The notes below the pieces were generated by a model, which had not been told where the DNA came from, did no database searches, and was given only the letters and a program-made list of their open reading frames with translations. 64,000 nt of DNA from the NCBI RefSeq assembly GCF_036365525.1, contig NC_090397.1, positions 13,252,289-13,316,288 on the forward strand. Direction: 5' to 3'. Position numbers and translations under genes: made by a program. The DNA comes from Heterodontus francisci. Its lineage: Eukaryota. Below, one piece after another: positions 25,352-32,634 of this stretch. Each line of letters opens with the position of its first letter. Positions within the stretch are counted from its first letter, which is position 1.

Positions 25352-25617
25352 CAAAACTCATTTCAACCTTCTCTTCTCTAAGGAGAACATCCCCAGCTTC
25401 TCCAATCCATCCATGTAACTGAAGTCCCACATCCCTGGAACCATTCTCGTAAATCTTTTCCGTGCTCTCTCTAATGCCTTCACATCCTTCCAAAAGTGTG
25501 ATGCCTAGAATTGGACACAATATTCCAGTTGAGGTTGAACCAGTGTTTTATAAAGGTTCAACAAAACTTCCTTGCTTCTGTACTCTATATCTCCATTTAT
25601 AAAGTCCAGGATCCCAT

Positions 25618-25748
25618 TAACTCTAACATGAGGTCTTACTGTAAGCAGCCATTGTTTAACTTTATACCTCCCCAAAACAGAGGGCAGCAGAGAGGGCAGT
25701 ATACAAAATGCTCAATATACAAAATGCTCATCTATTACATATATCACA
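25618..25748 (-). repeat. 3' LTR of the Gypsy element (outer ~14 bp missing)
   Basis: tctaacatgaggtct…caaaatgctca…ttacatatatcaca shared with 32498-32634; abuts the polypurine tract (ctccctccccactt on + strand). Confidence 0.85.
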
Positions 25749-26780
25749 CTCCCTCCCCACTTAAAAAAAAACATTAAAATGTATAATGGTACATGTACGT
25801 AATTTCCAAAAATACAATAGCTGAAATTTAACTGGATTGCATGCTTTTTACTGTAATCACAACTAAAACATATATGATCAATATTTCCAGAGTAATTTAC
25901 GTTACATACTTTTAATGAACCTATCTGGCTTCTTTCTCTTTCTGTCTGGGTATTTTCTTCCATTTCCATCAGCTTGGCTCTGCTCTCCCAACATCTCAGA
26001 CTGTGTCGACCCTGAACTTTGACTTTGACTACCAACAACATTTAATGGTTGGGACTGTGAAATTGATTGATTAGTCGTAACCAAAGACCCTGCTCTACTG
26101 GTGTATTCTGTGATATCGGCAAACTTTCAGTTTCTTTTTGACTTGCGCTTTCTAACTTTCACTTGGGAATATAGGAATGTTTTCCCTTTGTCAGATTTCC
26201 TCTTTCAAGCAAATGATTTACATGACCTGATGGAGTCGCTTTCCAACCTTCACTAGATATCTGAATGCACCTAGTCTTTTTACAACAGCTGCAAACACAT
26301 ACTTCTCATTATCACCTCGGTAGTTTTCCATCATGACCTGCTGACCAGCACTAAACTCTCTAAGTTTCATACCTTGTGTACCATGACTCATCTTCACTCT
26401 GTCTTGCTTTTCTCATATTTTGCTATTTTTGTCAGACGTAAGCAAACTAAACCTTGTCCTAGGAGCATGTTTAAACACTAACTCATAAGGTGAGCAACCT
26501 GTTGTAGGCTATGGGCTTATTCTGTAAAGAACAGAAAATTGGCTGGCATGTGTTGAAGAGAAACATGGAAATTACTGCCTAGCTTCTCACCTAACAAACA
26601 CTTCTGCAAAGACCTCTTCACAATTTGTACACTTTTTTCTGCAGCACCATTTGATGTTGGGTGATATTGTGGTATTTCAAACACTTCTGATGCAAACTGT
26701 GGACCATTATCTGACACCAAGCCAAAAATTGCAAACCAACTTCTCAAAACCTCAATAGTTTTGGCACTTGTGGTATTGGG

Positions 26781-27752
26781 CATAGGTTTAAGTGCTGGGA
26801 CCACTGTTTTTTTGCTAGATATAAATGACTTGGATCTTTGAATACAGAGTAGAATCTCAAAATTTGCCAATGATACTAAACTTGGAGGTGTGGCAACCCG
26901 TGAGGATGATATGAACCACCTGTAACAGGACATAGATAGGCTAGCAGGTGGCAGATGGAATTTAATACAAACAAGTGTGACATGATGCATTTTGGCAGAA
27001 GGAATAGGGAGAGGCAATGTATACTTAATGGCACAGTCCTAAAGAGGGTGCAGGGACCTGGGAGTACATGTGTATCCATCTTTGAAGGTAGCAGGACAAA
27101 CTGAGAGAGTGGTTAGTAAAGTATATGGGATCTTGGGCTTCATAAACTGAGCATTGAGTACAAAAGCAGGGAAGCTATGCTAAACTTTTATAAAGCTCTG
27201 GTTAGGTCCCAACTGGAATATTGTGTCCAGTGCTGCTCACCACACTTCAGGAAGGATGTGAGAGTCCTTGACAGGTGTAGAGGAGATTTACCAGAATGGT
27301 TCCAGGGATGGGCAATTTTTGGTACAAGGTTAGGTTGGAAAAACTGGGGTTGTTGTCCTTAGAACAAAGGAGATTGAGAGGAGATTTAAAAGAAATGTAC
27401 AAGATTATGACAGGCTTAGATATGTTAGACCAGGAGAAACTGTTCCTATTCAGTAATGGTACAAGGACTAGGGGATACAGATTGATGATTTTGGGCAGAG
27501 ATGCAGGGGTAATATGAGGAAGAACCTTTTTACGCAGCAGGTAATGACCTGGAACTTGCTGACCACAGAGTGTTGGAAGCAGGGGACCATCAATGACTTC
27601 AGAAGGAAATTGGATGGCCACTTGAAGGAAATAGACTTGCAGGGCTATGGGGATCAAGTTGGGGAGTGGGACTCACTGAAGTGCTCCGTGGAGAGCCGGC
27701 ATGGACTCGCTGGGCCGAATGACCTCCTTCTGTGCTGTATGTGACTCCATGA
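26781..27752 (+). mobile_element. CR1 3' fragment inserted in the Gypsy integrase
   Basis: ALVRSQLEYCVQ and RRLRGDL motifs with a (ATGACTCC/T)n-like tail. Confidence 0.9.
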
Positions 27753-28618
27753 CTGTATGTTATAGCTGTTGACCAAAACAAAATACTCTTTCCCGTCCAC
27801 TTCAAAGAAATTGACCTACTGGATTTCACCGAGCTCGTGACGTTGGGCTCTGTGGCAGGGGAGCGGGTGGTGCTGGAAGATCATGCTGGCAGAGGCCTGC
27901 CACGGAGCCCGACGCCAGGAAGGCCGGGCCCAATCCTGCCGGCAGCAGCGAGGTTCCGTGGTGCACCCCCCCCCACCCCCCCACCGCTGGGCAACGGGAC
28001 CTGCAACTAAATATGAAAATGAGTAAAATGAAAACATTAACATGCATTTACCTGGGGTCTGACGGACCCCCCGCCGCAATTTTCAGAACGGCGGCCGGCA
28101 CTCCCGTGCCTTCACTTCCCCATCTGAGGAAAGCTGGCATGATGCTGGTGGGGAGGGGGTTGGGAAGTTAAGATTTTTAGTCAGCGTGAGGGGAATGGGG
28201 TCAGAAATAAGCGTCATGAGTGTGGGGGATGGTGGCAACGGGTGAACTTTAAACTTTGTACAGTATTGGGGAGAAGGTCATATTTCAAAGGTAAGTGTTT
28301 TGGTGTGAAGGGCAAATACTTAATGTTGTTGGTATTGGGGGGGGGGGTGGAAAAGGGTGATTGAATTTTTATTGCAAAAGTGCGGTGGTGGGGGGTGGGG
28401 GTGGCATGACTTTAAAAATTTAAATTCACTAGCAGGGCTGGCTGCCTTTTATAAATGGTGCCAGCGCCTGCACACACAGGTAGCTGACACCATTGCTGAC
28501 ATCAGACAGCCCACCCCCTCCACGTGATTGGGGGGTTGCATGCCAACCTAGGTATTTAAATAAGCCGCCATGCGATAGATCATGGGAACTCAACGGCGCG
28601 CGGCCTGCATGTGCGGGC

Positions 28619-31266
28619 TGTTAGAGAAACTTCCAAGCCTGTTTGTGAAGAAGACACTGAGACTAGGATGCTTTGGTGGAGACTTTTTTTTTTATTTCCA
28701 AAATATACTTTATTCATAAAAATCTGTAAAAAAATACATTACAAAACAGTTCCAAAAAACACCAAGTCAAACAATATGAAGAGTGCAAAGGAGATCAGTT
28801 CCCTTCAAGACACGAGCGAGTTGCCTCACAACCCTTCCATTTCATTTTATATGCCATGTACATTTTACAGCAAACAAATATTTTCTGGATACCGTTCGAG
28901 GGGTTTCCCATGGATCCAGCCCCTCAGTTCACCTTGGTGGGGGGACCTTACACATTGGTCTTTCCCCATTGAGCCTTTGCCGCGGCTGCCCCAAGTTTTA
29001 GTGTGTCCCTCAGCACGTAGTCCTGGACCTTGGAATGTGCCAGTCTGCAACATTCAATCGTGGACAACTCTTTGCGCTGGAAGACCAGGAAGTTTCGGGC
29101 AGACCAAAGGGTGCCTTTCACCGAATTGATAGTCCTCCAGCAGCAGTTGATGTTTATCTCGGTGTGCGTCCCTGGGAACAGCCCGTAGAGCACAGACTCC
29201 TGTGTTACAGAGCTCTTTGGGATGAACCTTGACAAAAACCACTGCATTTCTTTCCACACCTGCTTTGCAAAGACACATTCCAGAAGGAGGTGGGCAACTG
29301 TCTCTTCCCCACCACAGCCACCTCAAGGGCATTGTGCGGAGGGGATGAGACTTCGGGCGTGCAGAAGGGATCTGACGGGGAGGGCTCTTCTCACCACCAG
29401 TCTTGGTGCTTGTTTAAAAGTTCTGGTGATGAGACATTGTGCCAAATGACTTTGGCAGTCTGCTCGGGGAACCATCCGACAGGATCCACCATCTCCTTTT
29501 CCCGTGGGGCCTTAAGAACATTCCGTGCAGACCACTGCCTGATGGATTGGTGGTCAAAGGTGTTTTTCCGCAGAAACTTTCCCACGAAAGATAGGTGGCA
29601 CGGCACGGTCCAACTTGATGAAGCGCTACACAGCAATGTGACCAGACTCATCCTTCGCAACACCGGGGACAGATAGAACCTCAGCACATAGTGACACTTG
29701 GAGTTTGCGTACTGGGGATCTACACACAGCTTGATGCAGCCGCACACGAAGGTGGGTCATCAGGATGAGGGCGACGTTGGGTACATTTTTCCCGCCCTTA
29801 TCCAGAGGTTTGAACATCATGTCCCTCCGGACTCGGTCCATTTTGGATCCCCAGATGAAACGGAAAATGGCTCGGGTGACCGCCACAGCGCAGGAGTGGG
29901 GTATGGGCCAGACCTGCGCCATGTACAGCAACAACGTGAGCGCCTCGCACCTGATGACCAGGTTCTTACCCATAATGGATAGAGATCGCTGCTCTTACAT
30001 GCTCAGCTCATGTTGTACCTTGGCTACTCATTCTTTCCAGGGTTTGATCCACGCCCCGGCCCTTCCGAACCATATCCCCAGCACCTTCAGGTAGTCTGAC
30101 CTAACGGTGAAGTGGACAAAGGATCGGTCAGCCCAGTTCCCAAAGAACATGGCCTCACTCTTGCCATGGTTAACTTTGGCTCCCAAGGCCAGTTCGAACT
30201 GGTCGCAGATGCTCATCAGTCTGCGCACAGACAGCGGGTCCGAGCAGAAGACAGCAACATCATCCATGTGCAGAGAGGTTTTAACCTGAGTGCTTCCACT
30301 GCCTGGGATTGTCACCCCTCTTATGCACGCATCCTTCCTAATAGACTCAGCAAAGGGTTCAATACAGCAAACAAACAGGACAGGGGAGAGAGGACAACCC
30401 TGTCTGACTCCAGATTGGATCAGGAAACTTTCTGATTCCCACCCATTGATTGAGACTGCGCTACTGATGTTTGTGTAGAGCAGTTTGATCCAATTGCAGA
30501 TTCCCTCCCCAAACCCCATTTTGGAGAGCACGTCCATCATGTAGGTGTGCGATATCCTGTCAAAAGTCTTCTCCTGGTCCAGGCTGATGAGGCAGGTGTC
30601 CACCCTCCTCTCCCGTACATAGGCGATCGTATCCCTGAGTAGCGCGAGACTATCAGAGATCTTCCTGCCGGGTACAGTACAGGTCTGATCAAGGTGAATC
30701 ACCAACTCTAGAGCAGACTTGACTCGACTGGCTATGACTTTTGACAGAATCTTGTAGTCAACATTAAGCAGTGAGATGGGCTGCCAATTTCTGATTTCTG
30801 CCCTCTCCCCCTTCCGCTTGTAGATGAGGGTGATGATGCCTTTCCTCATGGATTCTGATATGCTGCCGACCAGAAGCATACTCTCATATACTTCCAGCAG
30901 GTCTGGGCTGACCCAGTCCCACAGGGCCGAATACAACTGAACCAGTAAGCCATCGCTTCCGGGAGTTTTACTCGTCTCAAAGGACTTGACGGCCTTTGTC
31001 AGCTCATCCAGAGTTAGCGGCTTGTCCAGTCTCTCCCTCATGCTGTCATCTAAGACCTCTGTGATAGATGACAGGAAGGACTGGGAGGCTCTGCTGTCTG
31101 TGGGCTTCGCGTCTGTTTATTGCTTGCCACAGAACTTACTTGTCCACTCCTAACCACAGCCAGCCAATGCTGGCTGGCTCTTTATATATACACATTTGAG
31201 TACAGCTAACTAATCAACACCCAACATCTGTTCACCCTATTACCTTCAACTACTAGGTATTTAACA
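28619..31266. mobile_element. Probable short solo LTR split by the Tx1 insertion
   Basis: Begins TGTTAG at 28619, is interrupted at ~28684, resumes at ~31114 and ends TTTAACA at 31266; no TSD found. Confidence 0.45.
28684..31113 (-). mobile_element. Tx1/L1-clade LINE, 5'-truncated
   Basis: 337-aa RT ORF (ISLLNVDYKIL, SLDQEKTFD, GVRQGCPLSP), C-terminal Cys/His region, poly(A) tail seen as a T run at ~28684-28693. Confidence 0.92.
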
Positions 31267-32009
31267 TCCATTAACTGAACTTATGAGGCACTAATGGGGG
31301 CAGCCATTTTTTTTGCCTGTCGTTGGGAGCGGGAGGGGCAGGGGTGGTTCTTACTATCCAATCCCTTGTGTTTGACCATGGAATGAAAGGAACCTTGGTT
31401 GGATCATTTCTCATTCTGAGGCACACTTCACAACGTTTCACCAACTCTTCAATCTCTCTATCTACCTTTGGATACCAAAAATATCTTCTAGCTACTGCTT
31501 TCATAAGGACTATCCCTGTGTGCTCTTGATGAAGTTCCTCCAACAATCTCTCTCTAAACCTGGGCACAATAATGACTCTTAAATCCCATAGGAGACAATC
31601 TTGATCTACAGTCAGTTCATTTCGACACGTGAAAAACTCCTGCAATTTCTCATCATTCGCATTCTTTAGACCAGCCATTCATGACATAATTGAGTACTGA
31701 GCACCACATCCTTACGAGTTTCTTCAGAAATTTCTCTGGCACACACTGGCATGTCATTTGTGTATGGAAAGTAATTCACAGATAACTCATTGGCTAAGAA
31801 TGAATCAGTCTTACAGGAAATCTTGAAAGAACGTCCGCATTTGCAGGATCTGCTGACTTATGATATTTAATATCGATCTGATAGGCCATCAAAATCAATA
31901 CCCATCTCCGAAGCCATGCTGTCGCTAGAGATGATTACTCTTCTTTCAACCACATACGATCATAAAGTCTTGGTGGTCAGCTAACAAAGTGAATGTCCTA
32001 CTGTACAGT

Positions 32010-32480
32010 AGGCTCAGGAGGGGCAGGTGGGTTGCGGCCTAGGGCGGGGGCAACAAGGAACAATGAGGCGGCCAATAGATTAAATCCCGGAGTGCAGTCA
32101 GGAGCCTGTGGTGTGAGCGGTGGATACTAGTAATCTCGGTGCCTGGATTAGGGTGTGGTATTTGTGAACATGCCCACCCTCACATGGCAGGATCTCAATT
32201 TTAGACAAGTGGTTGCAGATGTACTGTGTGAATTTCTAGAAGTGGCTATTCACATGATCCTGTACAACCAAGAGGTTTATCTGAACGGAATCATTCAGAA
32301 GAGGAAGAATACAACGTATCTGTCCAAATGTTGTGTCACCCGGAGCTTAACCAGTATATCCGGTACACACTGCAGTGCAACAAACCTCTGATTGTGAAGA
32401 ATGAGGTGGATCGGGTGGTGGCAGTGATCCTGGATAAAGAGCATCATCCTGTGGAGCGTTTTGTCTTTGAGATATCCCAT
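32010..32480 (+). pseudogene. MAD2L2: Processed, 3'-truncated MAD2L2 (REV7) pseudogene with upstream leader
   Basis: ATG at 32170: [32 protein letters not shown]…QKRK, 1-bp frameshift near 32308, then YNV…CHPELNQYI…[18 protein letters not shown]. Matches the first ~100 aa of the REV7 HORMA domain with no introns. Confidence 0.93.
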
Positions 32481-32491
32481 CCTCATCACCA
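32474..32491 (-). promoter_or_regulatory. Primer-binding site (tRNA-Ser GCT)
   Basis: + strand ATCCCATCCTCATCACCA equals the tRNA-Ser(GCT) 3' 18-mer ATCCCATCCTCGTCGCCA (recalled) with two CpG-type G>A changes; 6 bp from the LTR end. Confidence 0.8.
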
Positions 32492-32497
32492 TCTTTC

Positions 32498-32634
32498 TGT
32501 TGTATATTCACTAAGTCTAACATGAGGTCTTTCTGTAAGTAACCATTGTTGAACTTTATTTACACCTCCCCAGTGGAGAGGGCAGTACACAAAATGCTCA
32601 ACATACAAAATGCTCAGCTATTACATATATCACA
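32498..32634 (-). repeat. 5' LTR of the Gypsy element
   Basis: TGTTGTATAT…ATATATCACA terminal inverted ends; homologous to 25618-25748; adjacent to the PBS. Confidence 0.85.

Follow-up and report, generated by a model that had tools for sequence, protein, structure and literature searches.

The window, a stretch of 64,000 nucleotides on contig C27 of the 6.0-Gb Heterodontus francisci genome, is a nest of decayed repeats in which no host gene was seen among the open reading frames of at least 150 aa. Its minus strand carries a Gypsy element whose parts follow the order 5' LTR, primer-binding site (PBS), antisense MAD2L2, RNase H, integrase, polypurine tract (PPT) and 3' LTR (Table 1), and every part that the initial annotation had named in that order was present. 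The annotation held as to the order but had been silent on the later insertions, about 4.6 kb in all, that split the integrase (31364-26790), and on the CR1-like fragment that cuts the 3' LTR. RNase H precedes integrase, as required of Ty3/Gypsy, and the element has a TG..CA LTR pair, a PBS and a PPT, the end of the 3' LTR being cut.

Table 1. Parts of the chimeric Gypsy element and of its MAD2L2 insert, in positions of the window.
Feature	Position	Strand	
5' LTR, 137 nt, TG...CA	32498..32634	-	
LTR-to-PBS spacer, 6 nt, as in other family copies	32492..32497	-	
PBS for tRNA-Ser(GCU), 18 nt, two CpG-type changes	32474..32491	-	
MAD2L2 (REV7) coding part, codons 1-102, exons 2-5 spliced, one 1-nt deletion	32170..32473	+	
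MAD2L2 5' leader, 161 nt, exon 1 spliced to exon 2	32009..32169	+	
Second junction, leader to RNase H, TAC/TACC common to both sides; tentative	32005..32012	-	
C-terminal RNase H, linker, integrase zinc-binding domain (PF17921, E 9e-12), decayed	31365..32008	-	
Later nested insertions: LINE with poly(A), other repeats, CR1-like fragment	26790..31364	-	
Integrase remnant, 54 nt, among nested insertions	near 27810-27758		
Remaining integrase and 3' internal region, colinear with family copy L173	25763..26784	-	
Polypurine tract (PPT)	25749..25762	-	
3' LTR, interrupted ~11 nt short of its end by CR1-like fragment	about 25616..25748	-	

The PBS is complementary to genomic tRNA-Ser(GCT) genes at their 3' end, with CCA added. 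Compared with family copy L173, the MAD2L2 insert stands in place of about 2,570 nt (gag-PR-RT) between PBS and RNase H, in agreement with the earlier observation that gag, PR and RT are absent, and the remaining pieces of the element are colinear with this copy down to the PPT and the 3' LTR. The two LTRs show 11 differences per 122 aligned nt, and the element's own 3' LTR ranks second of 29 LTR matches to the 5' LTR (91.8% vs 93.5%). A displaced 3' LTR end and a target-site duplication (TSD) were searched for and not found, the 3' end having been destroyed by the CR1-like fragment. Going by colinearity, both LTRs likely come from one insertion, the proof by TSD having been lost with the 3' end, and the chimera is probably a single Gypsy insertion, now dead. 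Nested in the integrase at about 31116-28690 is a LINE with a 362-aa RT frame (PF00078) and poly(A), which we take to be Tx1-like; about 250 nt of unlabelled sequence precede it (window 28690-31364). Some 3' LTRs of the family keep 5-6 nt of the LTR-PBS spacer past the terminal CA and others stop at CA (seen in L012, L026 and L175), and end processing may vary between copies.

The parental copy of MAD2L2, a DNA-repair gene, lies on contig C37, where a nine-exon model (1,660-nt mRNA) encodes an intact 211-codon protein; its exon 3 corresponds to MAD2B/REV7 (E 3e-20). The retrocopy (32009-32473 on the plus strand, ATG at 32170) is antisense to the element and aligns to five parental exons with 79-93% identity, four introns being gone. 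It ends in codon 102, codons 103-211 and the 3' UTR are missing, and a 161-nt leader is kept, values close to the codon ~101 and ~160 nt first estimated for an intronless copy. It carries no poly(A) (a tail may have been deleted later), and its exon-5 end abuts the PBS. The truncation is at the 3' and not the 5' side, unlike that of a LINE-made processed pseudogene, as the initial annotation had remarked. On its two sides the retrocopy meets the PBS and RNase H, which in L173 are separated by 2.6 kb; no duplication was seen there, but a two-step history would erase one side.

The distal ~45 nt of the leader align to the parent only through gaps. A 17-nt piece of the leader is absent from the parental locus in this assembly (exon 1, L007:2220-2232) and was not found in parental intron 1, where it was also looked for. 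Because the same piece occurs in an RNA contig of organism B (run X4), the insert retains an older leader state, and the piece was presumably lost from this assembly's allele between short repeats. The leader holds 16 further nt without explanation from the parent. A genome search returned neither further copies of the chimera nor other MAD2L2 retrocopies (4 candidates scored; a lower bound), and by the same search the locus is single-copy. Four sequencing runs (2 samples, RNA status assumed) gave only the parental spliced MAD2L2 transcript and other copies of the element, with no contig across either junction, a result uninformative on expression. Between retrocopy and parent 15 of 195 non-degenerate sites differ (7.7% per lineage), compared with 11 of 122 in the LTR pair (4.5% per lineage); the two ages do not differ significantly (p = 0.22), and the retrocopy does not appear younger than the LTR pair. 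The MAD2L2 fragment is a decayed single copy.

At the PBS junction, the parental mRNA reads ATCCCAGCCTCCTC and the tRNA end ATCCCATCCTCGTC, with 6 exact nt and 12 of 14 nt in common. Among the ~1,640 positions of the mRNA model, this site is the best 3'-anchored match to the PBS both by run and by duplex energy, a ranking that used RNA parameters and is approximate. Parental codons 102-106 (I-S-Q-P-P) overlap the PBS sequence, as had been claimed for the REV7 codons at the junction. The window PBS carries the tRNA-type base at both positions where tRNA and mRNA differ, which places the crossover in its final 6 nt. After the PBS, the family leader follows in all 12 other copies with an exact LTR-end/PBS pattern; the join is therefore specific. 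On the far side, Gypsy homology restarts inside RNase H, at 32008-32010 in 25 of 29 family copies and at 32000-31986 in the remaining 4. At this position 3-4 nt (TAC or TACC) are common to parent and element, TACC being found in 14 of the 23 family copies scored; this second junction is tentative because the leader end aligns with gaps. The intron loss and microhomology anticipated by the initial annotation were thus both found in the comparison with the parental mRNA, and alignment to the family placed both junctions.

The same annotation had suggested a search for other chimeras of LTR, PBS and antisense mRNA, and a second one was found on contig C13 (L191 / L212; G000:C13:100013670-100014958, minus strand). 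At C13:100014658, a 300-nt LTR of another family and its 18-nt PBS abut an antisense GSK3B piece of ~990 nt. This piece joins at least 8 exons without introns, shares 87-97% identity with a gene on C10 and is present as a single copy. The GSK3B parent reads ATCCC-TCCTC at the join, which is tRNA-like over 10 of 11 nt with one bulge. Within the 813 nt of exons examined it is the best 3'-anchored site by energy; elsewhere the GSK3B mRNA has an exact run that is longer (6 nt) and an unanchored site of lower energy. A repeat has overwritten the far end, and there is no 3' LTR less than 18 kb away, so that this case supports only the first three of the steps proposed below.

A genome census with the exact 18-nt PBS as pattern gave 120 matches (66 + 54), against 1 and 0 for the reversed control; the classification covered 115 sites, the window and 4 others examined separately. 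Eleven sites were tRNA genes, 3 were apparently due to chance and 106 lay behind an LTR-like end. Among these LTR-linked sites, 90 run on into the leader of their own family, a call made by eye for 2 singletons, and at the other 16 different sequence begins exactly at the PBS end, a share inflated by short-PBS families, where only rearranged products match the pattern. The sequence joined was antisense spliced host mRNA in 2 cases (the window and GSK3B), antisense own element in 6 (L177, L180, L187, L189, L192, L253), sense own element in 3 (L137, L209, L245), a tRNA read-through followed by sense element in 3 (L088, L185, L203) and other sequence in 2 (L138, L252); Pfam left 7 of the 16 pieces unlabelled, and the labels there come from blast to family copies or from translation reading. 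The census is biased toward copies with a well-preserved PBS and toward one tRNA. PBS-end joining is real and recurrent in this genome. Eight of the 16 joins continue antisense to a plus-sense template and 6 are sense; with half of the joins antisense, plus-sense templates are thus common acceptors. The acceptors for antisense element pieces could be RNA or plus-strand DNA, and for spliced host sequence an mRNA would be the simple template.

Relaxed patterns added nine sites (L089, L146, L325, L332, L333, L335, L343, L344, L355). Little or no homology was present at some PBS-end joins (L187, L253, L335), and the inserts of L252 and L325 matched nothing recognisable, that of L252 being unique. 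A search specific to the window's family for a second host insert at the PBS end returned the window only; with 2 mismatches allowed, it gave 24 matches and two more PBS-end joins, neither of them to host mRNA. One site, L344 (G000:C13:65295857-65296201, minus strand), consists of an LTR, a PBS and ~300 nt of C2H2 zinc-finger sequence in antisense; the relatives of this sequence form clusters on C34 and C22 and hold a tRNA-like site. Because it is of single-exon type and its PBS has 2 mismatches, L344 is only a candidate for a third host capture.

The origin of the 18 nt can be followed in families with a short PBS. In the family of the GSK3B case, the ordinary genomic PBS matches the tRNA over just 12-13 nt (6 clear cases among 30 LTR matches), and in another family over about 14-15 nt. 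Among the census copies with an 18-nt PBS, 3 of 3 in the first of these families and 8 of 9 in the second carried a rearrangement. In L180 and L332, the donor has an exact match to bases 13-18 of the tRNA, which the element wholly or partly lacks and which strong-stop DNA alone carries, having acquired them from 18 nt of primer; bases from the tRNA that are not in the element's own genome were seen in L180, L185, L332 and L088. In several copies the tRNA-derived sequence extends 9-35 nt past the PBS, and one such read-through copy of the window's family re-enters RNase H 87 nt downstream of the window junction. A PBS lengthened by 16-35 nt of tRNA-Ser copy was observed in L088/L170, L185, L333, L146 and L355; these extended-PBS copies are fossils of read-through past the usual stop and unambiguous tRNA copies. 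It should be noted that the genomic PBS of the window's family is already 18 nt long, so that the PBS at this locus does not alone establish that a tRNA was copied.

Plus-strand strong-stop DNA ends 18 nt into the primer tRNA (PMC8599865), which agrees with the statement of the initial annotation, and retroviral particles are described as packaging cellular RNA (PMC5086612). What is seen directly at the locus is the anatomy, the intron loss, a junction confined to the final 6 PBS nt and a tRNA-like mRNA site matching at 12 of 14 nt. We consider it most likely that these features arose when plus-strand strong-stop DNA mis-primed on a co-packaged MAD2L2 mRNA, an interpretation first made from the window itself and now favoured with good confidence by the microhomology, the junction, the lack of poly(A), the GSK3B case and the recurrence of PBS-end joins onto plus-sense templates. 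Spliced MAD2L2 mRNA would have been enclosed in the element particle (step 1), where strong-stop DNA, made of the LTR and an 18-nt tRNA copy, would have paired with the tRNA-like site of the mRNA and not with the minus-strand copy of the PBS (step 2). Reverse transcriptase would then have copied the mRNA toward its 5' end (step 3), which would yield the antisense orientation, the 3' truncation and the absence of poly(A). The new 3' end would have annealed over 3-4 nt to the RNase H part of the minus strand, both strands being completed (step 4), and the two-LTR product would have integrated, to be broken later by other repeats (step 5). We propose more tentatively, as a possibility that falls a little short of probable, that host RNAs packaged with an LTR element are primed by its plus-strand strong-stop DNA, guided by the tRNA copy, and that this priming forms a second general capture route, whose products would always be antisense, end at tRNA-like sites and lie directly behind an LTR promoter.

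An identical final structure would result from two steps if a LINE had put a full antisense MAD2L2 retrocopy into the RNase H of a transcribed copy, and if strong-stop DNA had later annealed to the tRNA-like site in minus-strand DNA, deleting what lay between. PBS-end deletions onto the element's own minus strand occur in this genome (L137, L245), and so do poly(A)-tailed retrocopies of LINE type (RPL21: 1 of 2 matches). This history, however, requires a rare retrocopy to land in a transcribed element and would have to occur twice, given GSK3B; no intermediate or second MAD2L2 retrocopy was found among the 4 candidates scored, and direct joins to plus-sense templates (8 of 16) are no rarer than sense deletions (6 of 16). 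A TT/AAAA-like site is absent beside the 5' end of the retrocopy as well, a motif termed unreliable in the main text of PMC5131818. Such a sequence of events is therefore unlikely. A deletion at the DNA level, in which a LINE retrocopy in a resident element was followed by microhomology-mediated loss between the PBS and exon 5, fares worse. Although the 12/14 similarity could steer repair and the locus underwent many later insertions and deletions, 1,118-1,487 other pairs of at least 6 exact nt and 5-13 pairs of 12/14 were available between element and antisense mRNA in the 3 family copies compared, and nothing favours the PBS end. Such repair cannot produce tRNA copies of 18 nt or longer in short-PBS families, and the retrocopy seems no younger than the LTR pair (p = 0.22); we thus regard it as clearly improbable.

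A broken MAD2L2 mRNA ending at the 6-nt match, had it primed instead of the tRNA, would presumably also account for the antisense orientation, the 3' truncation and a join among the final 6 nt of the PBS, the plus strand copying through the primer without an m1A stop. Both diagnostic PBS positions, however, are of tRNA type, so that the pairing could have been only 6 bp, and priming of this kind is impossible for GSK3B and L180, where the family's genomic PBS is without those bases, which makes it a very improbable origin. Minus-strand switching is the usual capture route in the main text of PMC5131818, and an ordinary switch onto a spliced antisense MAD2L2 transcript of an older retrocopy would be its equivalent here. 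But no source retrocopy was found among the 4 candidates scored, and the PBS-end position and the tRNA-like site are left unexplained, so that we give this origin the least credence of all.

Errors of the retroviral second (plus-strand) transfer were reportedly studied by Pulsinelli and Temin in 1991 and by Dunn, Olsen and Swanstrom in 1992, and are said to have included deletions starting at the PBS, tRNA read-through inserts and, in one unintegrated DNA, a U5-bounded gag-pol deletion holding cell-derived RNA sequence. These errors were reportedly cell-culture products, whereas the window and its sister cases are germline-fixed Gypsy fossils of several families; they are a probable retroviral precedent, in cell culture, for PBS-end capture.

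LTR-mediated retroposition is established in animals, where Tan et al. (2016, PMC5131818) modelled it as switching in the course of first-strand synthesis. Like the retrocopies presented in the main text of that study, the one in the window is a partial, 3'-truncated, intron-less mRNA copy without poly(A) that replaces internal sequence, with microsimilarity at both joins (6 exact/12 of 14; 3-4 nt, the second tentative). By contrast with the model given there, the insert is antisense and begins at the PBS end, while first-strand switching would, on our reading of the model, put the mRNA in the element's own orientation. This main text contains none of the terms 'primer binding', 'PBS', 'plus-strand', 'orientation' and 'inverted', and Supplemental Table 8 of the study may list antisense cases. 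The accessible text on Pxyfem of the diamondback moth describes a piece of spliced host mRNA beside LTR-element fragments, in reverse complement and with a 4-nt switch homology (bioRxiv 10.1101/2022.04.04.486979). There, the flanks are gag fragments, LTR and PBS were not recovered and the orientation is unaccounted for, whereas the window has an LTR and a PBS; Pxyfem is moreover amplified and makes silencing RNAs, and the window locus is single-copy. Mosquito Ty3/gypsy elements captured co-packaged viral RNA, and for 543 of 614 viral inserts the nearest LTR element has the same polarity, which was read as copy-choice (bioRxiv 10.1101/127498, in the part accessible). The window insert is opposite in polarity to its element, and the opposite-polarity minority in mosquitoes is without explanation in that part of the text. 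A literature search that left most subscription papers outside its reach found no description of antisense mRNA capture at the PBS in a germline, and word matches on such capture were absent from the accessible text of PMC6797480, PMC10753076, PMC3187697, PMC2645402, PMC5086612, PMC2175372 and PMC12115494. Strand-transfer errors and LTR retroposition are thus already known, and antisense germline capture at the PBS is little described.

Under the usual capture model inserts are sense, which leaves antisense retrocopies within LTR elements without explanation. With priming by strong-stop DNA, the primer tRNA is enough to predict the orientation, the truncation and the precise junction, so that this route is testable by a simple scan of any genome. 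Failed second-strand transfers were often fixed in the germline, the count of 16 in 106 exact-PBS element sites being an inflated share. If strong-stop priming were a general route, it would readily supply antisense fragments of genes, as precursors of piRNAs or siRNAs; candidate products would include moth feminizers and opposite-polarity viral inserts, and the signature could be searched for in any genome.

Several further observations concern rearranged copies and repeats elsewhere in the genome. Five rearranged copies (L332, L187, L138, L146, L203) end in the inverted start of their own LTR, and molecules with two U3 ends seem to have integrated in these cases; in L138, a 100-nt zinc-finger piece lies between ends of this kind. 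At G000:C14:88397423 (L089/L171), a 3' LTR is followed by the spacer, a full PBS and then a repeat of the last 36 nt of the LTR. A young, 5'-truncated RPL21 processed pseudogene with a short poly(A) and an open reading frame lies at G000:C1:268220541 (L084). The 3' motif of tRNA-Ser(GCT) has 364 matches, mostly in large arrays (contigs C28, C35, C50, C334 and others).
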